In this document: piece after piece, positions 1 through 17,062 of the stretch
How positions within the stretch are numbered: position 1 is the stretch's first letter
How the letters are laid out: each line of letters starts with the position of its first letter
UHGV virus genome: UHGV-0205375
DNA from: a virus
Length of the DNA stretch: 17,062 nt
Reading direction: 5' to 3' (one strand)
The notes under the pieces: model-generated
The model's input: only the letters and a program-made list of their open reading frames with translations
What the model was told of the DNA's origin: nothing
Database searches by the model: none
Program-made: the position numbers and the translations under genes

Positions 1-83
1 GTGACGCGGACATTATCCGGCGTAATGCCATTACGCATCCTGGCTTTGTGCCGGTGATCCCTCTGAAGGTGCCAGTGCAATGA
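1..83 (+). CDS. 3' end (27 codons) of an upstream tail-module gene, partial
   Basis: Open frame from the window edge to TGA at 81-83, which overlaps the next ATG (80-82) in an ATGA coupling arrangement. Too short to assign a family; by Mu-like gene order it could be the DNA-circulation protein. Confidence 0.3.
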   Translation, partial: DADIIRRNAITHPGFVPVIPLKVPVQ

Positions 84-1159
84 ACGACAATGTCACGCTA
101 CGGGTAAATGGCCGGGAGTGGAATGGCTGGACATCGGTGCGCATCGGTGCCGGTATTGAACGGCTGGCGCGGGATTTCAGTGTGGAGATCACCCGCCAGT
201 GGCCGGGAGATGAGGGTATTACCACGCTTCAGCCGCGCATTAAAAACGGTTCAAAAGTGGAAGTGCTGATTGGTGATGAGCTGGTGATTACCGGCTGGGT
301 GGAGGCGACTCCCGTTCGTTACGATGCCCGTTCGGTCAGCACCGGTATTGCCGGACGTAGTCTGACGGCTGACCTGATTGACTGTGCAGCCGAACCGACA
401 CAGTTTAACGGACGCTCGCTGGTGCAGATTGCGCAGGCGCTTGCTGCGCCTTTCGGCATTGAGGTGGTGAACAACGGTGCGCCGTCGGGTGTTATTCCTG
501 ATGTCCAGCCTGATCACGGTGAAACGGTGATTGAGGTAATCAACAAAATACTCGGTCAGCAGCAGGCACTGGCTTACGACGACCCGCACGGCAGGCTGGT
601 GATTGGCGGTATTGGCTCAACGCGGGCACATACTGCGCTGGTACTCGGGGAAAACATCCTTTCCTGCGATACGGAGAAGAGTATCCGGGAGCGGTTTTCT
701 GTTTACCAGGTGGCGGGGCAGCGTGCCGGAAACGACGATGATTTCGGTGAGGCCACCACCACCGCGCTGCGGGCCCGCACAGAGGACGCATTTATTGCCC
801 GTTACCGTCCGATGTATATCAGGCAGACAGGGCAGGCTACGGGGGCAGGCTGTATTGCCCGTGCGGACTTTGAAGCCCGACAACGGGCGGCGCGGACGGA
901 TGAAACCACCTATGTGGTGCAGGGCTGGCGACAGGGTAACGGTACGCTGTGGCAGCCCAACCAGCGGGTGATTGTCTTCGATCCGGTCTGTGGTTTCGAC
1001 AATACCGAACTGCTTGTCTCGGAAGTCACGTTTACTCAGGACCAGAACGGCACCCTGACGGAAATCCGTGTCGGCCCACCTGATGCTTATCTGCCTGAAC
1101 CCGAAGCCCCCGGCGCGCGGAAAAAGAAAAAAGCCAGAGTACAGGAGGACCCGTTCTGA
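80..1159 (+). CDS. Baseplate hub / tail protein, Mu gp44 (P)-like, phage GPD family
   Basis: 359-aa ORF with AGGAGG-type coupling to the next gene. First gene of a collinear Mu-like baseplate block (hub, V, gp46, J, gp48, fibre). Assignment rests on synteny and recalled similarity. Confidence 0.75.
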   Translation: MNDNVTLRVNGREWNGWTSVRIGAGIERLARDFSVEITRQWPGDEGITTLQPRIKNGSKVEVLIGDELVITGWVEATPVRYDARSVSTGIAGRSLTADLIDCAAEPTQFNGRSLVQIAQALAAPFGIEVVNNGAPSGVIPDVQPDHGETVIEVINKILGQQQALAYDDPHGRLVIGGIGSTRAHTALVLGENILSCDTEKSIRERFSVYQVAGQRAGNDDDFGEATTTALRARTEDAFIARYRPMYIRQTGQATGAGCIARADFEARQRAARTDETTYVVQGWRQGNGTLWQPNQRVIVFDPVCGFDNTELLVSEVTFTQDQNGTLTEIRVGPPDAYLPEPEAPGARKKKKARVQEDPF

Positions 1160-1707
1160 TGAAGGCGATTGAAGCCATGCAGCGACAACTCCTCGGCCTG
1201 ATTGGGCGGGCAGTGGTGAAAAGCATCAGTGCCACCACGAAATGTCAGACCGTGGATGTGTCCCTGATTGCCGGTGAACCCAAAGCCGGGATTGAACATC
1301 TTGAACCCTACGGTTTTACCGCAAGGGCAAACAGCGGTGCGGAAGCGGTGGTGTTGTTTCCGGATGGCGACCGTTCTCATGCGGTGGTTGTTACGGTGTC
1401 GGACCGGCGCTACCGCCTGAAAGGGCTGCAGACGGGTGAGGTGGCTGTCTATGACGATCAGGGGCAGTCCGTGACGCTGACCCGGGAGGGGATCGTGGTG
1501 GACGGTGCAGGTAAAACGATCACGTTTCGCAATGCGCCCAGAGCACGTTTTGAAATGGACCTGGAAGTGACCGGACAGGTGAAAGACCTGTGCGACTCCG
1601 GCGGTACCACCATGTCAGCGATGCGGCTTGCCTATAACGGGCATCGTCACAGAGAGAACGGTCAGGGCAGTAACACCGACAAACCGGATAAAGCGATGGA
1701 GGCATGA
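1159..1707 (+). CDS. Baseplate assembly protein V-like (Mu gp45-like spike)
   Basis: 182-aa ORF; its ATG at 1159 overlaps the upstream TGA (1157-1159), with AGGAGG at 1144-1149. Position and size fit a baseplate V/spike protein. Confidence 0.75.
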   Translation: MKAIEAMQRQLLGLIGRAVVKSISATTKCQTVDVSLIAGEPKAGIEHLEPYGFTARANSGAEAVVLFPDGDRSHAVVVTVSDRRYRLKGLQTGEVAVYDDQGQSVTLTREGIVVDGAGKTITFRNAPRARFEMDLEVTGQVKDLCDSGGTTMSAMRLAYNGHRHRENGQGSNTDKPDKAMEA

Positions 1708-2132
1708 TGGAACTGTGGCTGACGGTGAACGGTAAACGCACCTGCGCCAGTGCACCGCTGGATCCGCTGACCCGCGCCGTGGTGATTTCCCTGTTTACCT
1801 GGCGGCGGGCGGAGCCTGATGACAACGCCGACGTCCCGATGGGATGGTGGGGGGATACCTGGCCTGCGGTACAGAATGACCGTTACGGCTCCCGACTGTG
1901 GCTGCTTCAGCGCAGCAAACTGACCAATCAGCTGGTGCAGACGGTAAGGGGATATATCCGCGAATGCCTGCAATGGATGATTGATGACGGCGTGGTGTCC
2001 CGTATTGATCTGGATATCCGCCGCACCGGGATTAATGAGCTGGGTAACAGTATCACCCTCTGGCGTCGTGACGGACCGGTAATGATTTCTTTTGATGATC
2101 TGTGGAGTGCGATAACGCATGGCGGACAGTGA
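1704..2132 (+). CDS. GP46-family baseplate protein (Mu gp46 / P2 W-like)
   Basis: 142-aa ORF; ATGA overlap with the upstream stop at 1704-1707. Position is between the V and J genes. Confidence 0.7.
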   Translation: MMELWLTVNGKRTCASAPLDPLTRAVVISLFTWRRAEPDDNADVPMGWWGDTWPAVQNDRYGSRLWLLQRSKLTNQLVQTVRGYIRECLQWMIDDGVVSRIDLDIRRTGINELGNSITLWRRDGPVMISFDDLWSAITHGGQ

Positions 2133-3177
2133 ATTTCAGCGCCCGACGCTGGCAGAAAATATCAGTATGCTCCGTAACGATTTATTCGCCAGGCTGGACG
2201 TCAGCGACACGCTCCGGCGCATGGATGAAGACGTGCGGGCAAAGGTGTATGCGGCGGCGCTGCATACGGTTTACGGTTACATCGATTATCTGGCAATGAA
2301 CATGCTGCCTGACCTGTGCGATGAGTCCTGGCTGGCGCGACATGCTGCGATGAAACAGTGTCCGCGCAAGGGGGCCACGGCTGCCAGCGGGTATATGCGC
2401 TGGGAAGGTGTCAGCGATGGCCTGAAGGTGACCGCCGGGAGTGTTATTCAGCGCGATGACCTGGTTCAGTACACGGCAACTGCCGATGCAACCAGCTCCG
2501 GTGGTGTCCTGCGCGTGCCGATCGCCTGCTCAAATGCAGGCGCGGTCGGTAACGCTGACGACGGTACGGCATTAATCCTGGTCACGCCGGTGAATGGTCT
2601 GCCGTCTTCCGGTGTGGCTGACACCCTGACAGGCGGATTTGATACTGAAGAGCTGGAAACGTGGCGCGCCCGCGTCATTGAGCGGTATTACTGGACGCCG
2701 CAGGGCGGGGCTGACGGGGACTATGTCGTCTGGGCTAAAGAAGTGCCCGGCATTACCCGCGCATGGACATACCGTCACTGGATGGGAACGGGAACTGTCG
2801 GTGTGATGATTGCCAGCAGTGACCTGATTAATCCCATTCCGGAAGAATCAACGGAAACGGCGGCAAGACAACATATCGAACCACTGGCCCCGGTGGCAGG
2901 CTCTGATTTGTATGTGTTCAGGCCGGTGGCACATACGGTGGATTTTCATATCCGCGTGACGCCGGACACACCGGAAATACGGGCTGCCATCACCGCGGAG
3001 TTGCGTTCGTTCCTGCTGCGTGATGGTTATCCGCAGGGAGAACTGAAGGTATCGCGTATCAGTGAGGCGATTTCCGGTGCGAACGGGGAATACAGCCATC
3101 AGTTGCTTGCACCGGCAGACAATATCTCCATTGCGAAAAACGAACTGGCGGTACTGGGGACGATTTCATGGACGTGA
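2119..3177 (+). CDS. Baseplate J-like protein (Mu gp47-like)
   Basis: 352-aa ORF overlapping its neighbours by a few codons. Size and position are typical of baseplate J. Confidence 0.8.
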
Positions 3178-3752
3178 CAAACGATGATTACATCCGTCTG
3201 TTGTCGGCACTGTTGCCCCCCGGTCCGGCGTGGTCAGCCGGCGATCCGGCGATTGCCGGTGCGGCACCGTCATTAACCCGCGTTCATCAGCGTGCGGATG
3301 CCCTGATGCGGGAGCTTGATCCGCGCACCACCACCGAGCTGATAAATCGCTGGGAGCGTCTGTGTGGCCTGCCGGATGAATGTATTCCCGCAGGGACACA
3401 GACCCTTCGCCAGCGTCAGCAACGGCTGGATGCGAAGGTTAACCTGACGGGTGGCATCAACGAGGATTTTTATCTTGCACAGCTTGCTGCCCTGGGCAGA
3501 CCAGACGCCACCATCACGCGATACGACAAAAGCACGTTCACCTGCTCATCGGCCTGTACTGACGCGGTGAATGCGCCGGAATGGCGGTATTACTGGCAGG
3601 TCAACATGCCAGCCGCCACCAACACCACCTGGATGACATGTGGCGATCCCTGTGATTCCGCGCTGCGCTTCTGGGGGGACACCGTTGTCGAGTGTGTTCT
3701 TAACAAACTCTGCCCGTCGCATACCTATGTGATTTTTAAATATCCGGAGTAA
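3168..3752 (+). CDS. Tail protein, DUF2313 family (Mu gp48 / YmfQ-like)
   Basis: 194-aa ORF immediately upstream of the tail fibre gene, overlapping the J gene stop. Confidence 0.7.
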
Positions 3753-3755
3753 TCC

Positions 3756-4421
3756 ATGCATCGTATAGACACGAAAACCGCGCAGAAGGATAAGTTCGGC
3801 GCGGGTAAGAACGGTTTTACCCGTGGTAACCCCCAGACCGGCACGCCTGCCACCGATCTGGATGATGACTACTTTGACATGTTGCAGGAGGAGCTTTGCA
3901 GCGTTGTGGAGGCATCCGGTGCCAGCCTGGAGAAGGGGCGGCATGACCAGCTGCTTACCGCGCTTCGTGCGCTGCTGTTAAGCCGCAAGAATCCGTTTGG
4001 TGATATCAAATCGGATGGCACGGTGAAAACGGCTCTCGAAAACCTTGGTTTGGGAGAAGCGGCAAAACTTGGCGCTGCTGTAGGGGTAACGGGTAATACC
4101 GGGAGAATATTGATCCCGGCTTTAATTGGTGGGGTTGAACAAAATATCATTTTCCAGTGGGTCTCTGGATTTCTTTCCGATTCGACTGGAGTAGCAACCG
4201 TGACATTACCTATGGCATTTCCTAACGCTCTGTTTCATGCCACTGCGATTGACTCAGGTGCTTCTGCTAGCTCGTGGAATGGATCGGCCGGCACAACGTG
4301 GGGCTTCGATATTGGTGGCTCTACCAGAACGACAGTCAAAGTTCGTGTTTTAAGAACAACTAATGGGACTTCATGGGCGGGTGCTTCAGCTGCCGGTTGT
4401 TTATTCGCAATAGGTTATTAA
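3756..4421 (+). CDS. Tail fibre protein; constant N-terminal part (Sc) fused to the currently expressed variable C-terminal part (Sv)
   Basis: 221-aa ORF with GGAG 7 nt upstream. N-terminus [40 protein letters not shown] is the conserved e14/Mu-type fibre N-terminus. The inversion crossover site lies inside this gene at 4033-4058. Confidence 0.8.
4033..4058. repeat. Left recombination site of the invertible segment (hix/gix-like, 26 bp, core TT at 4045-4046)
   Basis: CTCTCGAAAACC TT GGTTTGGGAGAA; its reverse complement TTCTCCCAAACC AA GGTTTTCGAGAG resembles the hix/gix sites as recalled. A 24-bp perfect inverted repeat (4045-4068) pairs with 5625-5648. Confidence 0.65.
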
Positions 4422-4422
4422 C

Positions 4423-4839
4423 ATGAAAACAAGATACTTTTATGACGCCGTTGATAACGGATTTTATATTGAACCTGAAAGCAGGTTTATTCCTGAATCA
4501 GCTATTGAAATCAGTGTTAACCTCTACAACCAATTTGCTGGTATTGCCTGGCCTGAAGGTAAAATGCTTGGTGCAGATAGCACTGGACTGCCCGCATGGG
4601 TCGATGCGCCGCCTCCAACGCATGAAGAGCAAATAGCGGCGGCAGAACAATATCGCCAGCAACGGCTACAGCAGATTGACGAAGTAACCGCCGACTGGCG
4701 GGTTGAATTAATGCTCGGCGATATAAGTGACGAGGATAAAGCGAAATTGTCTGAGTGGATGGCGCATAAAAAAGCGGTGAAAGCCGTCGATACGTCAACG
4801 GCCCCTAATGTCATCTGGCCTGAACAGCCGGAGGCGTAG
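4423..4839 (+). CDS. Tail fibre assembly protein (Tfa family)
   Basis: 138-aa ORF directly after the fibre gene. The motif LPAWVDAPPPTHEEQIAAAE is shared with the opposite-strand paralogue (LPAWADIPPPTHEELIEITE). Confidence 0.8.
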   Translation: MKTRYFYDAVDNGFYIEPESRFIPESAIEISVNLYNQFAGIAWPEGKMLGADSTGLPAWVDAPPPTHEEQIAAAEQYRQQRLQQIDEVTADWRVELMLGDISDEDKAKLSEWMAHKKAVKAVDTSTAPNVIWPEQPEA

Positions 4840-5254
4840 GCCATTCAATATCTGGCGCACCGGAAGTATCAACCAGTTCCAGTGCGTCCAGATAATCCAG
4901 CCACAAATTATATTGCGCCAGTTCGTCACCTTTCAGACGACCAATAGCGGCTTTACCGGGCCATTGTTTACTGTTCATGTATTCGTTGGCCTGGTTAATT
5001 AGTAACTGTCTTTCTGATTCAGTAATTTCAATAAGCTCTTCATGCGTGGGTGGAGGAATATCAGCCCACGCAGGCAGCGCATCATCTCCGGCAATACGGA
5101 CTTTTCCTTGTGGCGGTTCAGCCATAAACTCACTGACAATATTTTGATTCACTTCTTTCACATCTGATAAATCCCATCCCTCTGATTTATATTTATCAAT
5201 CATATCCACAGGGAAAAAAGCATTATGTCTGGCACTATAAACATATTTGTTCAT
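4811..5254 (-). CDS. Alternative tail fibre assembly protein (Tfa'), in the inverted orientation
   Basis: Start moved to the internal ATG at 5252-5254 (MNKYVYSARH...), preceded by an AGGGTG SD-like sequence; 147 aa. Carries the Tfa motif and overlaps the 3' end of tfa by 29 bp, as in e14 and Mu G segments. Confidence 0.75.
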   Translation of the reverse strand: MNKYVYSARHNAFFPVDMIDKYKSEGWDLSDVKEVNQNIVSEFMAEPPQGKVRIAGDDALPAWADIPPPTHEELIEITESERQLLINQANEYMNSKQWPGKAAIGRLKGDELAQYNLWLDYLDALELVDTSGAPDIEWPTPPAVQAR

Positions 5255-5274
5255 ATAAATCACCCTGAATAAAA

Positions 5275-5643
5275 TTACTCGCCAACAGCCCACCAACAGT
5301 AATTCATGGTAACAGTTGGACTTGTCGAGGTTGTTCTAAAGGCAGAATAAAACCCTGTTAACCCTGTCTCTTCAGTTGTCATCATAAAACCACGACCACT
5401 CCCGGCAGTTGAACCACCATCACCAGAATGTGAAAGCAAGGCAATATCAGCTTTTTTAGGGAAAGGTATATTAAATTCTACCCGTAGTGTCTGACTCGCA
5501 AGCGTAGGAGACACACGCCCACGACCATATTGCAGGATTTTCCCGTTGGGTAATTTCATCCATCCATCACCACTGGCAAAAGAGGCCATGTCCGGTATCT
5601 GATTTTCCCCTGTCCCCACATCCCGTTTTGCCGCTTCTCCCAA
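5275..5643 (-). CDS. Alternative tail fibre variable C-terminal cassette (Sv'), promoterless until inversion
   Basis: 122-aa open frame whose 5' end (GEAAK...) begins inside the right crossover site and mirrors the ...LGLGEAAK junction of the expressed fibre gene. Inversion would fuse it to the constant part of 3756-4421. Confidence 0.65.
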   Translation of the reverse strand: MGEAAKRDVGTGENQIPDMASFASGDGWMKLPNGKILQYGRGRVSPTLASQTLRVEFNIPFPKKADIALLSHSGDGGSTAGSGRGFMMTTEETGLTGFYSAFRTTSTSPTVTMNYCWWAVGE

Positions 5644-5660
5644 ACCAACCTTTCAAATAT
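5635..5660. repeat. Right recombination site of the invertible segment (core AA at 5647-5648)
   Basis: TTCTCCCAAACC AA CCTTTCAAATAT. The inner half-site plus core is identical to the reverse complement of the left site; it lies 60 bp upstream of the invertase start. Confidence 0.65.
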
Positions 5661-5719
5661 TTTTCTGAATCAGGTGATATTTCGCCTCTTCTCCTGTTTT
5701 TACAACAGGAGAAGCACTC

Positions 5720-6283
5720 ATGATTTACGGGTATGTTCGTGTATCAACAAATCATCAGGATACAGAGTTGCAACGTCTTGCACTTGAGTCAGCTGGCTGT
5801 GAGCGAATTTATGAAGAATATGCCAGTGGCAGAACAGCTAATCGCCCTGTGTTAAAGGAATTAATTACGGTGATGAAAAGTGGAGATGAGTTGATTGTCT
5901 GGAAGTTAGATCGGATAGGGAGAAATGTGCTGCATGCGCTATTGATGTTTCAAAATCTGCACGAAAAAGGTGTTAATTTTCGGAGTATTACAGATGGCGT
6001 AGACCTGAAAACAGCAAGTGGTCGCTATAATTTCCGTAATATTCTTTCTGCTGCGCAGTATGAATCTGATTTGAATAGCGAGCGAACTTTAGCTGGTTTG
6101 GCTATTGCCAGATCCAAAGGCCGGATTGGTGGGCGTAGACCGAAGTTTAGCGACGAGCAGTGGCAACAGATGGGAGCGCTCATAGCGGCAGGGAAATCAC
6201 GGCGTTATGTTGCACGTATCTATAACGTTGGGCTATCAACCCTATATAAACGATTTCCTGTTACTGGCATTCAAACGAAATAA
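5720..6283 (+). CDS. pin: Serine DNA invertase, Pin/Gin/Hin family
   Basis: 187 aa with AGGAG 8 nt upstream. N-terminal YGYVRVSTNHQ (catalytic Ser), WKLDRIGRN, GRIGGRRPKF and a C-terminal HTH (VGLSTLYKRF) follow the Gin/Pin pattern, and the gene abuts the invertible segment. Confidence 0.9.
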   Translation: MIYGYVRVSTNHQDTELQRLALESAGCERIYEEYASGRTANRPVLKELITVMKSGDELIVWKLDRIGRNVLHALLMFQNLHEKGVNFRSITDGVDLKTASGRYNFRNILSAAQYESDLNSERTLAGLAIARSKGRIGGRRPKFSDEQWQQMGALIAAGKSRRYVARIYNVGLSTLYKRFPVTGIQTK

Positions 6284-6587
6284 TTTAAAAGCAATTTAAA
6301 GAGTTATTTGTCTAATGTTGGAAGCCGCAGCCACGTCGTATGCAAGAACGTGCTGCGGCTGGCTGGCGAACTTTCGATAGTGCGAGTATTGAATGATTTC
6401 CAACTGTTATCGATTTTGCGTATTTTTTGCATGAGAGGATTTTTACCTCCTCCCGCCGATCCTCCATGGCTTTACGCCTGTGTCTCTGGTCTGCTCTGTG
6501 CCAGAAGCGGACATAGCAGGTGCCAGATGCATTTGTTATTCTTCATTGAATTGAGCAGTATCCTTAACAGGAACTCTGAATACATAA

Positions 6588-7226
6588 ATGAAGATGAAAA
6601 ACATGTCTGAAGTGTTGACCCAAGAAAAGCTTATTTTTGTTGCCCAGAGACTAAAGGCCCTCGCGCAGTCAGGCCTGACCTATTCAAAAGACGTCTTTGA
6701 CAAGGAACGCTATGAAGCCTTGCGTGAAATTGCCGCTGGACTGCTGAGTTCGCAGTTTGATATTAGCCGCAATGATTTGTTTCATGTATCGGAAACGGGT
6801 TACGCGACGCCCAAAACAGATGTGCGTGCGTTTATCCTGCGTAATAATCGTATTCTGATGGTGAAAGAGGCTGCAGATGGATTATGGAGTCTTCCTGGCG
6901 GATGGGCAGATGTTGGAGATACACCTTCTGAAGCTGTGCGTCGAGAGGTCGAAGAAGAAACCGGATTAAAAGTCAGAGTGACTAAACTATTGGGAGTTTG
7001 GGATCGTAATCTTCACGGCCATCCGCCTTTACCCTGGCATGTTTACAAGCTGATTTTTCTCTGTGAAGAAGTAGGTGGCAGCCTGTCAATCAGCCATGAG
7101 TCACTCGATGCTGATTTTTTTGATGTCAACGACCTGCCTGAATTGTCGCTTTCAAGAATTGTGCCTGAGCAGATTGCTGTCAGCCTGAGAGTAGCGAAAG
7201 GTGATGAAAAAACATGGTTTGATTAA
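6588..7226 (+). CDS. NUDIX hydrolase with an N-terminal helical domain
   Basis: 212-aa ORF with a Nudix box GGWADVGDTPSEAVRREVEEETGL (G-x5-E-x7-REVxEExGL). The start is ambiguous among ATGs at 6588, 6594 and 6603; substrate unknown. Confidence 0.75.
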   Translation: MKMKNMSEVLTQEKLIFVAQRLKALAQSGLTYSKDVFDKERYEALREIAAGLLSSQFDISRNDLFHVSETGYATPKTDVRAFILRNNRILMVKEAADGLWSLPGGWADVGDTPSEAVRREVEEETGLKVRVTKLLGVWDRNLHGHPPLPWHVYKLIFLCEEVGGSLSISHESLDADFFDVNDLPELSLSRIVPEQIAVSLRVAKGDEKTWFD

Positions 7227-7255
7227 CTTTCTTCTGCAACCATTAAGGAATGGCA

Positions 7256-7894
7256 ATGATATTCAACGCTAAGGGTTTTTTATTCGATATGGACGGTACG
7301 CTGGTTGATTCAACAGCCGTAGTGGAAAGCGTCTGGAGAGATTTTTGTGCAGAATACGGTCTTGATTCTCAGGCTGTGATTGCTTACGCACACGGGCGGC
7401 AAACGATTGATACACTAACGCATTTTATTGGTGCAGGTGAGAAAACCAATAAAATCGCGGCCTCACTCGAAGAGGTTGAAATCAACACGACAGAAGGCGT
7501 TACTGAAGTAAAAGGGGCCGCTGCACTCTTATCAAAACTGCCACCGGATAGCTGGGCACTTGTCACTTCTGCAGGCAGAATGCTTGCCGAAAACAGGATG
7601 AAAGCGGCTAATCTCCCCTTACCCAGAGTAATGGTGTGTGCAGAAGATGTAATGACGGGAAAACCAAGTCCCGAGGGTTACATCAAAGCAGCTTTGGCTT
7701 TGGGCCTTGAGCCTGGTGAATGCGTGGTATTTGAGGATGCATCTGCGGGTATAAAAGCAGGGCTGGCAAGTGGAGCTTCGGTAATAGCTGTTCAGCCTGA
7801 CGCTCTGGGAGCATCTGAAGCCCATGCCGTCAGCGAACTGTCTGACATTATGGTCAAGATTTCCGGAGAACGTTTCAATATCATCTGTGGTTAA
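7256..7894 (+). CDS. HAD-IA family phosphatase (beta-phosphoglucomutase-like sugar-phosphatase fold)
   Basis: HAD motif I FDMDGTLVDS at the N-terminus and an acidic motif (VVFEDASAG) near the C-terminus. Start placed at the second ATG (7256) because AAGGA at 7244-7248 is then 7 nt upstream; the ORF track starts at 7250. It lies 23-29 bp after the NUDIX gene, so probably co-transcribed. Confidence 0.8.
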   Translation: MIFNAKGFLFDMDGTLVDSTAVVESVWRDFCAEYGLDSQAVIAYAHGRQTIDTLTHFIGAGEKTNKIAASLEEVEINTTEGVTEVKGAAALLSKLPPDSWALVTSAGRMLAENRMKAANLPLPRVMVCAEDVMTGKPSPEGYIKAALALGLEPGECVVFEDASAGIKAGLASGASVIAVQPDALGASEAHAVSELSDIMVKISGERFNIICG

Positions 7895-8226
7895 TCACGT
7901 TACACAATACGCATCAATGGACGCTGAGTAGTTCGCGAGTTTTAAACTTCCAACGTCCGCTTTTCGCTCATAACAGACATAAACTTCAGTTATGGCATAA
8001 AGGTATGCATGCTGGGTGGGGAAAGTATGAAGGAAAAGAAGACTGCTGCGCCGTTTGTCGTCACGTTTATCTTCATTGGCTATGCAAGTCGTAATACAAG
8101 GTGGGACAAAACTGAGACACATAAGGCCTCGCAATGGCTTGCAAGGCTTTACATGTTTTGATGTGGTGGGACGTGTGAGCGCAGTGTTGATGGGGTAATG
8201 CTTTGAATTAGAAGCGGATTCTTATA

Positions 8227-8273
8227 ATTCGTAATGCGAAGGTCGTAGGTTCGACTCCTATTATCGGCACCAT
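8227..8273 (+). tRNA. Partial tRNA-Thr(CGU) gene: 3' 47 nt only (anticodon loop through CCA); attachment-site core, not a functional tRNA
   Basis: ATTCGTAATGCGAAGGTCGTAGGTTCGACTCCTATTATCGGCACCA contains the anticodon CGT, T-arm GGTTCGACTCC and acceptor 3' end with CCA, matching the 3' part of enterobacterial thrW as recalled. The upstream 80 bp has no D-arm or 5' acceptor half. It sits 13 bp from the 3' end of the integrase gene. Confidence 0.7.
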
Positions 8274-8286
8274 TTAAATCAATAAG

Positions 8287-9450
8287 TTACACATCATTAG
8301 TACCTTCCTTATTTTTTGACTGGGACAAATTTGGGACCGATGGGTTCAGGATCGAGTCTATTTGCCGTGCGTGTTCGGTAAGGTGATTAGGTGCAAGGTG
8401 AGCATATCGACGAACCATTTCGATAGACTCCCAGCCTCCCATTTCCTGTAACACTGACAACGGGACTCCGGCTTGAACCAGCCAACTTGCCCAGGTGTGT
8501 CTCAAGTCGTGAAATCTGAAATCATCAATACCAGCCCGTCTCAGCGCCGCTTTCCAGGCTGTGTTTGCGTCATACCGCATCTTCCTGACTGTTGGCGCTT
8601 TCGTTCCGTCTGGTTTGGTACAGCTTTCCTTGTACACAAATACCCAACGGTGATGATTCCCGATTTGTTTTTTCAATACGCGACATGCAGTATCATTCAG
8701 CGCAACGCCAATTGCGCGGTTTGATTTACTCTCTTCCGGGTTTATCCATGCCACCCGGCGCTGCATATCTATTTGTTGCCATTCAAGGTTGATGATGTTC
8801 GAGCGTCTTAGGCCTGTTGCCAGTGCAAATTCAACAACAGACTTTAATGGCTCCGGACATTCATCAATCAGCCTTTGTGCTTCATGGGGCTCCAGCCAGC
8901 GGATCCGTTTATTCTTTGGTTGGGGCACTTTAATAATTGGTGCCTTATCCAGCATTTTCCATTCACGCTCTGCGGCTCTTAGTAGGGCCTTTATAAATGA
9001 AAGATGCGTAGCCTTCGTTGCAACGGACGCTGGTTTTGGCGTGTATTCTGGAACAGGTTTCCCTTTTTTTCTGCATGCTTCTGCCCTGAGTTTCCAGTTT
9101 TCCTCATGACGCCGGTTCGTCATTTTCTGCATTGCTGAATAAATTTTTGATTCAGTAATGTCTCTTAGTTGCATTCCTGCGAAATGTTGAAGCCAGAATC
9201 CGATCCGGCTTTTGTCATCGTCCAGTGATTTTTTATGTGCTTTCTCTTCAAGCCACCTGACACACGCTTCCTCGAACGTTATATCAGGTATTTCACCAAG
9301 TTTGCTGACCCGCCATGCTTCAGCCTTTAGCTTGTCATGGAGTTCTGTCGCCTGCCTTTTGTCCTTTGTTCCAAGAGACTGTTTAAATCTTTTACCGTTC
9401 GGCAATGTGAAACTGGCGTACCATATTTCACCTCTGCGGAAGAGTGACAT
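8287..9450 (-). CDS. int: Tyrosine integrase, lambdoid/P22-like
   Basis: 387 aa with C-terminal catalytic region [16 protein letters not shown]...MVRRYAHL (H-x-x-R and Tyr). The 3' end abuts the tRNA-Thr fragment; P22-type integrases are known to use thrW. Confidence 0.9.
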
Positions 9451-12251: not shown

Positions 12252-12387
12252 TTTGCTGCTCCTCATCATATCGACCCTGCAAGGTCGGTTAGTTTCTCCA
12301 CAAAACAGAGAAGAACACCTGCGGTGACTGCCGCCCGGATGGATTGGGTTATGAGCCCGTCGTCCGGTGATGCTCTTCTCTGTTTTG

Positions 12388-12433
12388 TAAAAAGGACGGT
12401 ACCAGCCGGAAGCAAGGGTACAAGCTGGTACCG
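12388..12433 (-). terminator. Putative intrinsic terminator for leftward (minus-strand) transcription
   Basis: 10-bp perfect GC-rich inverted repeat CGGTACCAGC (12397-12406) / GCTGGTACCG (12424-12433) with a 17-nt loop. On the minus strand it is followed by TCCTTTTTAC. The large loop makes it weaker than a canonical terminator. Confidence 0.35.
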
Positions 12434-12719
12434 CCAAGACTACACACAGCATAAAGTTGTGGTGCCGGGTGCCTCCCGGTGCCTGGCGAAGGTTGCACAC
12501 CAGGCGGGTGGGTATCCACAGAAGGTCGACTGTCAGCCTCAACCTTAACCCGCGTGCGCTGAGCCGCATTCACCACAACGCTAAGGATTCTCTCTGGTTG
12601 AAAATACTTAGCTGTTATGTGCCTGCTTTTAGCCACATCAGGCGAGGTGGACCTAGTTATTCCCCAACAACAAGGATTCGGTTAATCTGGTTATCCCCAA
12701 CAACGCAAAAGGAAAAGAA

Positions 12720-13332: not shown

Positions 13333-13496
13333 TTCACATCTCCTCAAGTTATCAGTTACTTGTTGATGGGGACCAGATTGTTAAAGAGCTAAGCGTCCTG
13401 TAGGGCGCTTTTTTGTTGCTAACGAATCATCCTGGACTTCATATGCCCCAGGCGGCTACTTCGTGGGCGTCCTGCCTGTTCGTTGTCGGTAAAATG

Positions 13497-13538
13497 ATAT
13501 TGCTACTTAAAGTTGCAAAAATCAACTACAAAAAGTAG
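13497..13538 (-). promoter_or_regulatory. Putative OL/pL: two 13-bp operator sites (CTAC-N5-GTAG type) interleaved with -35 TTGATT and -10 CAATAT on the minus strand
   Basis: Minus-strand reading is CTACTTTTTGTAG - TTGATT - 17-bp spacer containing CAACTTTAAGTAG - CAATAT. Same architecture and 23-bp operator spacing as the OR/pR region at 15303-15344. Confidence 0.5.
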
Positions 13539-13844
13539 AAGTTAAGGGCATAAAAACGCATTTTGAAATTAATTCATTGAATTTACAGGTAAAATATTTT
13601 GGGGGCTATGATCAAAAAATTATATTGTGAAGTTAGCTGAGTTGTAGAACGTGATGGATTGTTTCATTGTGGCTGAGATCAGTATGTGATCTAGTTAATC
13701 ATCAAGTGGGGAGAAGTCAATCATGAGAGTATTGTTGAGTTTTTGGAGACTAAGTGTAAAACGGTAGGGAATTTACTACTCAATGGATTGTGTGATTTAG
13801 CCTCGATAGTAAGAAAACTAGGGCAGGTCATAGTCAAAAACTTA

Positions 13845-14129
13845 TCAAAACATAAATTTGGCGAGACCTAAAATCGCCAAGCCTGTTGCAACAGTCCATG
13901 CGATCTGTTTATTTACGGCTGATGAAATAGCGCTGTTGACTTCACTTAGGCTAGGTTTTTTTGACAACTTTTCATCTATATCTATTTGTTTTTGAAGGAT
14001 AACAGCGACATCGCGTCGGGTGTCGGAGAGAGCGTTTCGCAAATCACGAATGTCAGCTCTCATCTCTGCGAGATTTGTTTTTATATCCTCAACATTCGCT
14101 TCTAACTTAGCGACTCGGGCTTCAAGCAT
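13845..14129 (-). CDS. Small coiled-coil protein with C-terminal transmembrane anchor (XhlA-like architecture)
   Basis: Start taken at the ATG at 14127-14129, preceded by GGAGGTG 6 nt upstream; 94 aa. MLEARVAKLEANVEDIKTNLAEMRADIRDLRNALSDTRRDV is coiled-coil-like and the C-terminus IAWTVATGLAILGLAKFMF is hydrophobic. The track's longer ORF would overlap the upstream gene by 56 nt. Confidence 0.55.
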   Translation of the reverse strand: MLEARVAKLEANVEDIKTNLAEMRADIRDLRNALSDTRRDVAVILQKQIDIDEKLSKKPSLSEVNSAISSAVNKQIAWTVATGLAILGLAKFMF

Positions 14130-14196
14130 GTCATCACCTCCGCCATCTCCACCGTGTCTTCTAATTGTGGGAAGTTCACTATTAAATGGTACTACA

Positions 14197-14544
14197 TTAT
14201 TTTGCGGCGTCGGCATTTTTTTCATCTTCCGTTTTTGCTGGGAACTTTTCATTTACCCAGTTCAAAACTGAAAACGCATTTATATGAATTTCATTTCCAC
14301 AATTGTTGCATATTAGTGAAAAGTAATACTGGTTAGCAGTATCAGAATAAATGCTTTTTTCAGTAAAAACATTCACATAACTACCAAGTTTCATAGTACA
14401 TGGCATGCCCACATTCGCGCTGACTTGAGGCACAGTCAATCTGTCGTGTCCACATAGTGTACATTTTAGATATATATTCTTTTCTGAGAAATAAGAGACC
14501 AACATATCCATGTTAATCTTTTCGAATCCCTGCTCACTAGCCAT
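14197..14544 (-). CDS. Zinc-ribbon-type protein (115 aa), unknown function
   Basis: Two CxxC pairs (CTLCGH and CNNCGN) about 50 residues apart. Starts 15 bp downstream of the cI stop on the same strand, so probably co-transcribed with the repressor. Confidence 0.55.
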   Translation of the reverse strand: MASEQGFEKINMDMLVSYFSEKNIYLKCTLCGHDRLTVPQVSANVGMPCTMKLGSYVNVFTEKSIYSDTANQYYFSLICNNCGNEIHINAFSVLNWVNEKFPAKTEDEKNADAAK

Positions 14545-14559
14545 TATATGCCCTTAGAA

Positions 14560-15300
14560 CTATAACCGATTGTATTTTATTGACTCATGAATCAACGCCT
14601 TGCCCATTACATAAAGCTGATCCTGCGATTTTTCATCGATGTACCATTTCTCATAGGCAGGGTTATCCGAAAGAACGGCTAGCTTGTCACCTTGCATTTG
14701 AAGACGTTTAACATGAAAAGTCTTACCGTAAACGAAAGAGTAAATTCCATCAGTCTGGAAGTGACGAACAGAAATGTCGACAAACAGTCGATCTCCGGAA
14801 ACGAGAGTAGGGGACATACTATCGCCATTTACAGTCATAACCTTAATATCATCCTGAGAACGGTTACCGAAAAGAGAACGGGCATGTTCTGTTGTGAACT
14901 CAATGGCGTAGAGCACATCAACATAGTCTGAAAGCATATAGGTTCCAGGTCCTGCGCTAACGCTAAGATCTAAAACTTCTATCCTGTATACGTCGGGTTT
15001 AGTTGGATTGGGGATGCTTGCCATTTCCTTACATCCTTCTCTCTCGCCAACACCATATTCTAAATATGAAGCCGATACCCCCAGAGCCAACGCAAGTTTA
15101 TTCATGACAGAGGCACGAGGCTTCGCTGCGCCGATTGTGTATCGCCGCGCCATTTCATATGTAACGCCAACAAGACTTTTGAGTTGGGTGACAGAAATTC
15201 CCTTGTTTGTCATTAACTCGTTTAGTCTCTTGGCGAAATCTGGATACTTCTGTTCTTCTACCATAGGTAGAAGATTACTCACATCACATACGCTCGTCAT
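14560..15300 (-). CDS. cI: CI-type prophage repressor (HTH plus LexA/S24 peptidase domain)
   Basis: HTH region ISVTQLKSLVGVTYEMARRY and an S24 autoprotease domain with GDSMSPTL (Ser) and HVKRL (Lys). The track start at 15321 would place the operators inside the CDS; start set to the ATG at 15298-15300 (possible leaderless mRNA), with the ATG at 15262-15264 as an alternative. Confidence 0.85.
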   Translation of the reverse strand: MTSVCDVSNLLPMVEEQKYPDFAKRLNELMTNKGISVTQLKSLVGVTYEMARRYTIGAAKPRASVMNKLALALGVSASYLEYGVGEREGCKEMASIPNPTKPDVYRIEVLDLSVSAGPGTYMLSDYVDVLYAIEFTTEHARSLFGNRSQDDIKVMTVNGDSMSPTLVSGDRLFVDISVRHFQTDGIYSFVYGKTFHVKRLQMQGDKLAVLSDNPAYEKWYIDEKSQDQLYVMGKALIHESIKYNRL

Positions 15301-15302
15301 TT

Positions 15303-15344
15303 CTATTTTAAGTAGTTGCAATTCGCTACTTTAAGTAGCATTAT
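15303..15344. promoter_or_regulatory. Putative OR with divergent promoters: operators CTATTTTAAGTAG (15303-15315) and CTACTTTAAGTAG (15326-15338); pR -35 TTGCAA (15316-15321) and -10 CATTAT (15339-15344)
   Basis: Two near-palindromic 13-bp sites spaced 23 bp centre to centre between divergent cI and cro. The pR spacer is 17 bp, and the cro AGGAG RBS follows at 15361-15365. Confidence 0.55.
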
Positions 15345-15371
15345 CCCCTCTGGATTTCAGAGGAGAAAGAT

Positions 15372-15635
15372 ATGTCATCTCAAAACTACACCGAGAAAGC
15401 AGTAAAGGCTGCGGGAAAGTCTTTATCTGAAGTAGCTCGTCGCTTTGGTTTTAAATCTACTCAATCTGTCGCTAATTGGGTAATTAACAATCAAGTCCCG
15501 TCGGAACGAGTTTTACAACTTTGTGAGCTGGGGAACTGGTCCGTAACCCCCCATGAGCTGCGTCCTGATATTTATCCAAATCCAAATGATGGATTACCAG
15601 AGTGCTATTCAAAAGTTAGCGGTTCAGTTGCGTAA
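15372..15635 (+). CDS. Cro-like HTH regulator (YdaS-like)
   Basis: 87 aa, divergent from cI, AGGAG 6 nt upstream. The segment STQSVANWVINNQVPSERVLQLCELGNWSVTPHELRPDIY resembles YdaS/Cro-type proteins as recalled. Confidence 0.7.
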   Translation: MSSQNYTEKAVKAAGKSLSEVARRFGFKSTQSVANWVINNQVPSERVLQLCELGNWSVTPHELRPDIYPNPNDGLPECYSKVSGSVA

Positions 15636-16559: not shown

Positions 16560-17062
16560 ATGAGCACTAAATTAACCGGCTATGTATGGGATGGTTGCGC
16601 TGCGTCAGGCATGAAATTATCCAGCGTGGCAATTATGGCCCGCCTGGCTGATTTCAGTAATGACGAAGGTGTGTGCTGGCCATCAATTGAAACCATTGCC
16701 CGTCAGATTGGCGCGGGGATGAGTACCGTCAGAACGGCTATCGCACGGCTGGAAGCAGAAGGCTGGTTAACGCGTAAGGCGCGTCGCCAGGGTAACCGCA
16801 ATGCGTCGAATGTTTATCAGCTTAACGTTGCGAAGCTTCAGGCAGCGGCATTTTCTCAACTGTCAGATTCTGACCCGTCAAAATCTGACGCATCAAAATC
16901 TGACCCGTCAAAATTTGATGCGTCGAAATCTGGCAAAAAAGCGGGTTTTCACCCGTCAGAATCTGGCGGGGATCCGTCAGTAAAATCAAAACATGATCCG
17001 TCAGATAAAAAAACTTCTCGTCCGGACGCTTCGCAACCGGACACGCAGCCGACCAAACACAC
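16560..17062 (+). CDS. Replication initiator (O-like, HTH N-terminal domain), 5' partial: runs off the window end
   Basis: ATG at 16560 with GAGG 7 nt upstream; open frame to the window end. HTH-like N-terminus (SSVAIMARLADFSNDEGVCWPSIETIARQIGAGMSTVRTAIARLEAEGW) and a repetitive linker (DPSKSDASKSDPSKFDASKSGKK) encoded by the iterons. Confidence 0.7.
   Translation, partial: MSTKLTGYVWDGCAASGMKLSSVAIMARLADFSNDEGVCWPSIETIARQIGAGMSTVRTAIARLEAEGWLTRKARRQGNRNASNVYQLNVAKLQAAAFSQLSDSDPSKSDASKSDPSKFDASKSGKKAGFHPSESGGDPSVKSKHDPSDKKTSRPDASQPDTQPTKH
16869..17010. repeat. Putative replication origin iterons inside the initiator gene
   Basis: Four contiguous 15-bp repeats (TCTGACCCGTCAAAA at 16869-16883 and 16899-16913; TCTGACGCATCAAAA at 16884-16898; TTTGATGCGTCGAAA at 16914-16928), then degenerate CCGTCAGA-type copies and an A-rich tract near 17000-17010. 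Confidence 0.6.

Follow-up and report, generated by a model that had tools for sequence, protein, structure and literature searches.

The window, by which we mean the whole analysed stretch of 17,062 nt, contains an immunity region with divergent cI and cro genes. This identification, made in an earlier note on the same DNA, is supported by Pfam, which assigns helix-turn-helix (HTH) and S24 peptidase domains to the repressor. The features of the region are as follows.

13422-13483, minus strand: covarying RNA-like element of about 62 nt, starting some 7 nt downstream of the predicted pL +1
13497-13525, minus strand: predicted pL, with -35 TTGATT (13525-13520), 17-nt spacer, -10 CAATAT (13502-13497) and +1 at about 13490
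13503-13515: candidate promoter-proximal OL operator (OL1-like), CTACTTAAAGTTG, one mismatch, occupying the pL spacer
13526-13538: candidate distal OL operator (OL2-like), CTACAAAAAGTAG, exact, adjoining the pL -35
13845-14544, minus strand: two small cargo genes between cI and OL, in a rex-like position
14560-15264, minus strand: cI repressor gene, 234 aa, Pfam HTH_3 and Peptidase_S24, likeliest start ATG 15264
15258-15270: candidate OR3-like operator, CTACCATAGGTAG, exact, with its centre on the A of ATG 15264 and an extended palindrome at 15256-15272
15272-15300, minus strand: candidate pRM, with -35-like ATGACG (15300-15295), 17-nt spacer, -10-like TAATCT (15277-15272) and 7 nt to A15264
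15303-15315: candidate middle operator (OR2-like), CTATTTTAAGTAG, one mismatch, lying between the pR -35 and the candidate pRM -35 and adjoining both
15316-15344, plus strand: predicted pR, with -35 TTGCAA (15316-15321), 17-nt spacer, -10 CATTAT (15339-15344) and +1 at about 15351
15326-15338: candidate pR-proximal operator (OR1-like), CTACTTTAAGTAG, exact, occupying the pR spacer
15372-15635, plus strand: cro-like gene, 87 aa, YdaS/Cro-type HTH (PF15943)

The SAG cleavage-site motif, the GDSM serine and the VKRL lysine of CI were invariant in 28 homologues, and the cro product was 62-82% identical among loci with the same operators. The cargo genes occupy a slot that is variable among loci and gave no significant match in Pfam or PADLOC, and a cII-like gene was assigned by Pfam to the 186-CII/YmfL type.

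Four palindromes of the form CTAC-N5-GTAG had been described at OL and OR, and reading of the sequence together with a motif scan placed all of them where they had been reported, in two pairs with the 23-bp spacing that had been given for each. The form itself is exact at 13526-13538 and 15326-15338 only, as the sites at 13503-13515 and 15303-15315 carry one mismatch each. A motif search of the whole 17-kb stretch, a check proposed in the earlier note, returned one further exact match at 15258-15270. Exact matches thereby number three against 0.07 expected, a count reached in 0 of 200 shuffles, and all five matches with at most one mismatch fall within the two regulatory regions. The centres are A/T-only in the four sites reported before and CATAG in 15258-15270. 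The CTAC/GTAG palindromes are supported as the best operator candidates of the window.

Fifteen related loci from E. coli, Providencia, Morganella and metagenomic contigs, with repressors 41-84% identical, have the same layout and the same recognition helix; as a scan of genome contigs gave three loci only, related loci were fetched protein by protein. The five-site layout recurs in all 15, with OR sites at -68, -45 and 0 from the second ATG (15264 here) and an OL pair 23 bp apart, the distance of this pair ranging from 737 to 2663 bp. The OR1-like site lies at -68 or -67 in all loci, and the OR2-like site at -45, where it is never perfect and keeps an invariant ATAG half-site. At OL, the proximal site was found at its offset and the distal site 23 bp from it in 15/15 loci, and the E. 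coli variants ZYS9073 and OkiPb01716 have an exact GTAG half-site at the position of 13503-13515. With up to two mismatches allowed, the 15 loci contained no third OL site at a recurrent offset, and no OFR-like site was found after cro. As the third OR site is present in all loci, OR comprises three candidate operators and OL two, so that the earlier count of two operators per side stands for OL and fails for OR. A one-mismatch site within cro (at about -162), recurrent among the loci, was rejected as an operator; it has two mismatches here and lies in a conserved coding stretch, SLSEVAR. A possible fourth site 23 bp past the pR-proximal operator occurs in seven loci (CTCTAACATGTAG) and is absent from the DNA studied here.

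On both sides the operator pairs frame -35 and -10 hexamers separated by 17 nt, rightward for pR and leftward for pL, in agreement with the mirrored layout proposed before. The placement of one operator inside the spacer was likewise confirmed with refined coordinates, the pR spacer consisting of TTCG plus the operator. The hexamers match the consensus weakly (8/12 for pR and 7/12 for pL) and a consensus promoter scan left pR, pL and pRM below threshold or unlisted, so the promoter calls rest on conservation and not on score. The equivalents of the pR hexamers are kept in the related loci; at pL, TTG directly follows the distal operator in all loci and a NANNAT-type -10 follows the proximal operator in most. 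The operators would overlap the predicted -35/-10 regions of pR and pL, with hexamers and 17-nt spacers that fit and are conserved but resemble the consensus weakly.

The start of cI had been placed at ATG 15300. This codon (15298-15300) does lie 2 nt from an operator and lacks a Shine-Dalgarno sequence, as had been stated, but as a start it is disfavoured by the alignment with HK022/HK75 CI, by the PGAP start and by the codon statistics of the 12-codon extension that it would add. Met1 of HK022/HK75 CI aligns with residue 13 of the longer frame, which is the Met of ATG 15264, and the PGAP annotation of strain TW14425 begins cI at 15264. Synonymous changes made up 10% of the differing codon pairs in the extension versus 48% in cI proper, and the 36 nt upstream of ATG 15264 had no third-position excess, their values equalling those of out-of-frame controls. 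By these statistics the 36 nt that separate the two ATGs have diverged in the manner of non-coding sequence. ATG 15264, with the N-terminus (M)VEEQKYPDF, appears more likely as the cI start than ATG 15300, with MTSVCDVSNLLPMVEE (MTSVCDV...). The frame from ATG 15300 is open in 14/14 loci, for which the naive chance is 0.003, or about 0.05-0.1 after a correction for relatedness that is our own judgement, so a longer CI isoform is possible. Neither ATG is preceded by a Shine-Dalgarno sequence in any related locus. The TTG at 15321, taken by PGAP as the cI start in strain CX12, was rejected since it falls inside the pR -35 hexamer. Prodigal-type gene callers predict a 246-aa CI in many homologues, and the start at 15264 would correct a recurring gene-start error, as many database CI models of 246, 250 and 253 aa begin within the operator region.

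Between the two ATGs, 14 loci have the same arrangement of an invariant ATGAC, a 17-nt spacer of variable sequence and fixed length, TAxxCT, 7 nt and the ATG. The T of TAxxCT that would end a codon is kept, although the residue encoded by this codon is S, R, D or L depending on the locus. The -10-like hexamer lies at -13 to -8 of the cI ATG here, in HK75 and in locus L006, and one nucleotide closer in L005. The earlier note had proposed a leaderless cI from ATG 15300; from that codon the proposal is not supported. Given the start at ATG 15264 and the conserved pRM-like pair, however, a leaderless cI stays plausible from there, with the 5' end of its mRNA at or next to A15264. A second candidate, TAAAAT at 15310-15305 inside the OR2-like site, matches the -10 consensus in five of six positions and reads TATAAT in the Morganella and Providencia loci, its first T varying among loci (T, G in L008, C in L017); it could be the real -10 of pRM.

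The third OR site is centred on the second ATG (offset 0) in every related locus. As judged from these loci it is conserved beyond coding needs, with third codon positions invariant inside the site and positions downstream of it varying freely. A palindrome in this position is seen in four immunity types of the clade, its centre of symmetry being the A of the cI ATG here and in HK75, L005, L006 and S9-5. It changes together with the other operators of the same phage, being GAAC/GTTC in HK75 and TTAAC/GTTAA in L005. In the HK75 record an oR3, labelled as similar to that of HK022, has its centre on the cI ATG. The half-sites of the OR3-like site are perfect, unlike lambda OR3, which is a weak site, and only the G/C-flanked centre CATAG hints at a lower affinity here.

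We propose, with a probability of roughly 60%, that an E. coli lambdoid prophage has its immunity switch here, with an HK022-like CI, a three-site OR, a two-site OL and cI starting at ATG 15264. We infer how the repressor binds, where the promoters lie and the transcript starts, and how activation and negative autoregulation would work, as follows. The CI of this HK022-like branch would recognise CTAC-N5-GTAG with an A/T-rich centre, and CI dimers are predicted on the OL sites 13503-13515 and 13526-13538 and on the OR sites 15326-15338, 15303-15315 and 15258-15270. As each lytic promoter would have one operator within its 17-nt spacer and a second adjoining the -35 from upstream, the 23-bp pairs, about two helical turns apart, could shut both pR and pL. 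Binding of CI at these pairs would probably be cooperative, and looping between OL and OR may occur. The cI gene is probably transcribed from the weak ATGACG-17 nt-TAATCT promoter between the OR2-like and OR3-like sites, whose geometry would put the 5' end of the mRNA on the AUG or at most one base from it and hence make cI leaderless, as in lambda. The OR2-like site would lie just upstream of the candidate pRM -35, in a position from which CI could activate. Its centre is at about -45 from the +1, and lambda OR2 stands 3 bp nearer the +1 of pRM, so that activation is uncertain. With the OR3-like site over the +1 and the AUG, CI at a high level, or Cro, could block cI transcription. The weakness of the predicted promoters, with 7-8 consensus matches out of 12, speaks against this model.

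The same start at 15264 could be served by a leadered transcript, with TAAAAT/TATAAT as the -10, transcription from about 15297-15300, a leader of about 35 nt devoid of a Shine-Dalgarno sequence, and 15258-15270 acting as a roadblock. The -10-like hexamer is conserved and becomes a perfect TATAAT in distant loci, and PGAP, the HK75 alignment and the codon statistics back the start codon. We nevertheless regard a leadered cI as unlikely, as it leaves the ATGAC and TAxxCT blocks at their constant 17-nt spacing unexplained, the first base of its -10 is variable, CI bound at both sites of lytic repression would occlude the promoter, and three other immunity types of the clade have a -10-like hexamer 6-7 nt before the ATG.

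The model that follows from the earlier note, a 246-aa cI leaderless from ATG 15300 with TAAAAT as its -10, a bipartite OR and a purely coding 15258-15270, seems to us distinctly improbable. It accommodates the ATG and open frame in 14/14 loci, the 246-aa proteins from gene callers, the five-of-six match of TAAAAT (TATAAT in Morganella and Providencia) and the want of space for a Shine-Dalgarno sequence. The extension, however, has no coding signature (10% versus 48% synonymous), HK022 CI aligns from the second Met and PGAP uses 15264. The first T of TAAAAT is variable, and the hexamer ends only 4 nt before ATG 15300, compared with the 7 nt between TAATCT and the A of ATG 15264. As its -10 and -35 would both lie inside operators, CI would shut its own maintenance promoter whenever it repressed pR. 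A purely coding 15258-15270 also fits poorly with its lack of third-position variation next to freely varying downstream sequence, and by our own estimate, scaled from 0.07 per 17 kb, chance alone would place an exact third site at this distance of 45 bp only about 0.001 times.

That 15258-15270 is no repressor site at all, being kept for a translation-initiation context or another factor beside a bipartite OR, is very improbable: its centre, CATAG, is not A/T-only as in the other four sites and it lies 45 bp instead of 23 bp from its neighbour, but it has the same half-sites as the other operators, the equivalent palindrome at the ATG covaries with the remaining operators in HK75 and L005, and the equivalent site is annotated as oR3 in HK75.

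The conserved covarying element just past pL is the most interesting side observation. Its stems covary in the alignment of related loci, from which alone the structure emerged, as single-sequence folding downstream of pL was no better than for shuffles. Rfam gave no match for it, and no second, putR-like copy was found. Two short motifs, ACGAAC and CAGGATGA, occur both in the element and in put; its covariance model left the put sites of HK75 and HK022 undetected, and we therefore do not call it a put RNA. Tentatively, and with considerable doubt, it could represent a new class of put-like, factor-independent antiterminator RNA in an N-less HK022-style system widespread in prophages of Enterobacterales. 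If so, the N-less early-control module would consist of three OR sites, with OR3 on the leaderless cI +1/AUG, two OL sites and an RNA antiterminator.

This immunity type was present in 206 of 5426 complete E. coli genomes (about 4%) and in prophages of other Enterobacterales. E. coli TW14425 carries the module at about 1,035,400-1,037,700 of NZ_CP127265, and GB089 carries it too. Repressors as low as 43% identical overall still have the recognition helix GVTYEMxRRYTxGxAKPR, and E. coli variants keep the operators while the sequence to the right of OL diverges completely. In a megablast search against deposited phages only the flanks were matched and the immunity module was not, and the searched literature yielded neither a match for the operator sequences nor a usable pRM mapping for HK022. 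The repressor-binding motif and immunity type appear to be a new specificity, being absent from the searched papers and, at high identity, from deposited phages. The switch preferred here, with its three-site OR and cI from ATG 15264, reads as an ordinary lambda-type switch with a new immunity specificity. It provides, from sequence only, a definition of the operator motif and a full operator map for this immunity type. By this comparison, members of the HK022-like CI clade seem to share a design in which one operator has its centre on the +1/AUG of a cI that is probably leaderless, a simple variant of lambda negative autoregulation that does not overturn the current understanding of lambdoid switches.

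Among known systems, the 434/P22-type operators, which are short and have a non-contacted centre, resemble the palindromes described here, in which outer half-sites of 4 bp are conserved around a centre that varies and is mostly A/T. The half-site sequence (CTAC/GTAG) is different. In phage 434 more G/C in the operator centre lowers affinity, which may be compared with the G/C-containing centre of the OR3-like site.

The resemblance to lambda lies in the 23-bp spacing, the mirrored OL, the S24 autopeptidase domain of the repressor, the cI gene without a Shine-Dalgarno sequence and the -10-like hexamer just before its AUG. The OR pair here is centred at about -18 and -41 relative to pR, as are lambda OR1 and OR2. 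The differences are that the operators here are of 13 bp (perhaps 17 bp) and of another sequence, that OL3 is missing, and that the third OR site lies on the +1/AUG, its distance from OR2 exceeding by about two helical turns that of lambda OR3, which is placed between the -35 and -10 of pRM. In lambda, the pRM transcript from which cI is translated has no leader (PMC10491246). The Stx phage 933W also has three operators at OR and lacks OL3, and its repressor binds OR1 and OR2 non-cooperatively (PMC5977221); its repressor and operator sequences are unrelated in specificity to those described here.

The closest likeness is to HK022/HK75, whose CI is homologous over the full length (42% identity, E = 7e-67) with N-termini aligning at MV(E/Q). 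Cooperative binding and OL-OR looping have been described for HK022 CI (PMC8053113). Shared features are an oR3 palindrome whose centre is the A of the cI ATG, a -10-like hexamer 7 nt before it, the divergent cI/cro pair, OL and OR flanking cI, and the position of a structured RNA, here a putative one, directly after pL. In HK022 put is a two-stem RNA of about 70 nt just downstream of pL, with a second copy downstream of pR, and putL occupies the position equivalent to the 13422-13483 element, whereas the RNA here was not detected as put and no putR-like copy was found. Measured from the cI ATG, the other two operators have their centres at -45 and -68 here and at -33 and -57 in HK75. In place of oL1-3 plus OFR, OL here has only two sites, and nothing like OFR was found after cro. 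The Cro proteins come from different families (19% identity), a cII-like gene of 186-CII/YmfL type is present here, and cargo genes stand between cI and OL. As the half-sites are CTAC/GTAG here and GAAC/GTTC in HK022/HK75, and the recognition helix differs as well, the two represent different immunity types.

The immunity region carries five sites of the form CTAC-N5-GTAG, and no other site with up to one mismatch was present in the whole window.

13503-13515: putative OL operator, one mismatch (GTTG)
13526-13538: putative OL operator, exact
15258-15270: putative third OR operator, exact
15303-15315: putative middle OR operator, one mismatch (CTAT)
15326-15338: putative pR-proximal OR operator, exact

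The three exact copies in 17 kb compare with 0.07 expected, and this number was reached in 0 of 200 shuffles. The earlier note had reported four sites in two pairs; all four lie where it placed them and the 23-bp spacing of both pairs was confirmed from centre to centre, but 13503-13515 and 15303-15315 are only one-mismatch versions. Its count of two operators per side held at OL, where no third site recurred at any offset across 15 related loci even with two mismatches allowed. At OR, the window-wide search it had proposed uncovered one further exact site (15258-15270) that adjoins OR and had been overlooked, and whose centre, CATAG, is the sole operator centre not purely A/T.

The comparison loci were obtained from E. 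coli variants, from proteins with 66-84% identity to CI, from a genome scan that gave one Morganella locus and from deposited phages whose CI shares 41-45% identity (Providencia phage PSTRCR_117lys and Escherichia phage Phi06_2987 S). The same operator layout was found in 15 of 15 loci, with OR operators at -68 (or -67), -45 and 0, numbered from the A of ATG 15264, the second ATG, and an OL pair 23 bp apart downstream of cI, at a distance of 737-2663 bp that varied with inserted cargo genes. The E. coli variants share no related sequence to the right of OL, yet they retain the operators, and in them the mismatched OL half-site of the window is a perfect GTAG. The middle OR site was imperfect in every locus, with an invariant ATAG half-site. 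The CI HTH segment GVTYEMxRRYTxGxAKPR was present in every CTAC/GTAG locus down to 43% overall identity, whereas HK75 and HK022 have a different CI helix and different half-sites (GAAC/GTTC); Cro was conserved within the group (62-82%). Such persistence of the sites, together with the co-kept CI helix and the conserved Cro, is the pattern expected of real operators. An operator-like sequence within cro (15423-15435, CTATCTGA(A/G)GTAG type) has two mismatches in the window and one in several loci (L011, L017 and L019, about -162 from the cI ATG); it overlaps the conserved SLSEVAR coding stretch, and coding requirements, not an operator function, probably account for its retention.

The operators are combined with predicted lytic promoters, read from the sequence as follows.

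Predicted pR: CTATTTTAAGTAG, -35 TTGCAA (15316-15321), TTCG + CTACTTTAAGTAG, CATTAT (15339-15344)
Predicted pL, minus strand: CTACTTTTTGTAG, TTGATT (13525-13520), TTTG + CAACTTTAAGTAG, CAATAT (13502-13497)

As both pairs are 23 bp apart and hexamers and operators follow the same order at pR and pL, the mirrored layout described earlier is real at both predicted promoters. The hexamers are weak (8/12 consensus matches for pR and 7/12 for pL), and a consensus promoter scan listed neither. A palindrome, CCTCTG-N5-CAGAGG (15347-15363), follows the pR -10 ahead of the cro ATG; its right arm contains the cro Shine-Dalgarno and its sixth arm position covaries among loci (G-C, A-T, T-A). Seven related loci have CTCTAAC(A/G)TGTAG there, which fits the operator with two mismatches and lies 23 bp further on than the pR-proximal site; the window lacks it.

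Downstream of pL, a conserved RNA-like element was detected.

13422-13483, minus strand: RNA-like element of about 62 nt, beginning about 7 nt past the predicted pL +1
13391-13410: flanking hairpin

It was represented by 17 distinct copies in related loci, with compensatory changes in 4 of 15 predicted pairs, and deposited phages of Klebsiella, Citrobacter, Pantoea and Yersinia carry it as well. The element sits where HK022 has the antiterminator site putL, and the short motifs ACGAAC and CAGGATGA are present both in it and in putL/putR. It had no match in Rfam, nor were the put sites of HK75/HK022 detected by a covariance model derived from it. We hypothesize that it may be a put-like antiterminator.

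Three cI starts are possible: TTG 15321, ATG 15300 and ATG 15264. TTG 15321 falls within the pR -35 and was rejected. ATG 15300, preferred in the earlier note, corresponds to the 246-aa models of Prodigal-type callers, while PGAP places the start at 15264 in most genomes. The evidence favours ATG 15264 on four grounds. Met1 of HK75/HK022 CI (42% identical, E = 7e-67) aligns with the Met encoded by ATG 15264, which is residue 13 when the protein is read from ATG 15300. The HK75 record labels as oR3, with a note of similarity to HK022 oR3, a site whose centre is the start codon of cI (TTGAACTTATGGTTCAA); its counterpart at ATG 15264 is TTCTACCTATGGTAGAA, with symmetry around the A of ATG at distances 2-9. 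The ATG-centred arrangement recurs in two further immunity types of the clade, L005 and L006, each with half-sites of its own. In a comparison of nine loci, codon positions 1, 2 and 3 in the variable part of the 12-codon extension diverged by 0.47, 0.32 and 0.40, with 10% of differing codon pairs synonymous (out-of-frame controls 9% and 4%), against 0.28, 0.20 and 0.55 and 48% synonymous in cI proper. Lastly, the conservation profile of the extension resembles that of a promoter, with ATGAC invariant, then 17 nt that vary in sequence but not in number, an invariant T-A-x-x-C-T and finally the operator; the T of T-A-x-x-C-T would be a third codon base, in a codon for S, R, D or L by locus. A longer CI isoform from ATG 15300 is possible, as all 14 loci keep its frame open; the naive probability of 0.003 rises to about 0.05-0.1 by our own rough estimate when relatedness is allowed for. 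Many database models of this repressor family begin too far upstream (246, 250 and 253 aa), within the operator region, and HK022-type loci (HK75 locus L031, 2456-2500) also have an in-frame upstream ATG, overlapping the pR -10 (CATAAT).

Conservation and spacing point to a candidate maintenance promoter, pRM, for ATG 15264.

15300-15295: -35-like ATGACG of candidate pRM
15277-15272: -10-like TAATCT of candidate pRM

TAATCT is followed by 7 nt and then, as eighth base, by the A of ATG 15264. The same geometry was found in HK75 (CTGATA, 17 nt, TATAGT, 7 nt, ATG) and L006 (TATAAT, 7 nt, ATG), with GATATT, 6 nt, ATG in L005, and a Shine-Dalgarno before ATG 15264 or its equivalent was seen in none of the loci. 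Since related types share this geometry and no locus has a Shine-Dalgarno, a leaderless cI starting at 15264 is plausible; lambda cI is leaderless (PMC10491246). A leadered cI transcribed from TAAAAT/TATAAT is kept as a rival because the Morganella and Providencia loci have a full-consensus TATAAT at this position. For the ATG 15300 start of the earlier note, a promoter with the same TAAAAT (15310-15305) as its -10 is weaker: TAAAAT ends 4 nt ahead of that ATG and lies within operator 15303-15315, its matching -35 lies within 15326-15338, and its first T is G or C in two lineages.

The centres of the pR-proximal and middle OR operators lie at about -18 and -41 relative to predicted pR, as do those of lambda OR1 and OR2. 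The invariant imperfection of the middle site is as would be expected for a cooperatively filled site. This site ends 2 bp ahead of the candidate pRM -35, a position compatible with pRM activation by CI; its centre would fall near -45 (the lambda counterpart is at -42). The third site would span the predicted +1/AUG, where it could allow negative autoregulation by CI or, alternatively, shut-off by Cro; by analogy with phage 434, its CATAG centre may lower affinity. HK022 CI binds cooperatively with OL-OR looping (PMC8053113).

The window derives from a lambdoid prophage or phage of E. coli. It contains baseplate/tail genes of Mu-like type, an invertase, an integrase, a yfdP/Q/R-like early-left operon, the immunity region and a replication module.

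Within 1-9450: Mu-like baseplate and tail-fibre genes
5720-6283: Gin/Cin-type invertase
8287-9450, minus strand: integrase
13845-14544, minus strand: two small unannotated ORFs, cargo slot
16848-16970: iteron-like direct repeats of 15 bp (five to six copies, consensus about GTCAAAATCTGACNC), inside the replication-initiator gene

NUDIX and HAD hydrolase genes lie between invertase and integrase, and the order from tail genes to int corresponds to a vegetative phage map and not to a prophage. The cargo between the cI stop and OL, in a rex-like position, varies among the window and comparison loci L003, L004 and L008-L028; Pfam and PADLOC gave nothing significant for the two ORFs of the window, other loci carry HigB toxin, HipA_2 with DUF3037 or ParA/CbiA-like ATPases, and the slot is empty in the Providencia, Morganella and Phi06_2987 loci. 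The iteron-like repeats are probably the origin of replication, and an Rfam mir-5880 match to them was spurious. In the early-left region, the prophage-associated sRNA family STnc100 (RF02076) was matched at 12386-12609 on the minus strand with 43.4 bits, just below the gathering score of 47 (E = 1e-6).

The 2.3-kb immunity module occurred at 99.8-100% identity in 15 complete E. coli genomes and as a 95% variant in two further, and the cI-OR-cro core in 206 of 5426 E. coli genomes. No deposited phage carried the module at high identity, matches being to the flanks only; the best CI tblastn matches among them were HK639 (58%) and HK022/HK75 (42%). The operator site sequences had no relevant match in the searchable literature.

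The switch is predicted to work in the manner of the lambda and HK022 switches, and its CI belongs to the HK022-like clade. As in 933W (PMC5977221), OL is without a third site. Compared with HK022, the window differs in operator spacing, lacks oL3 and OFR, has a Cro from another family and a cII of the 186-CII/YmfL-like type, and carries cargo genes between cI and OL; it represents an immunity specificity distinct from that of HK022.
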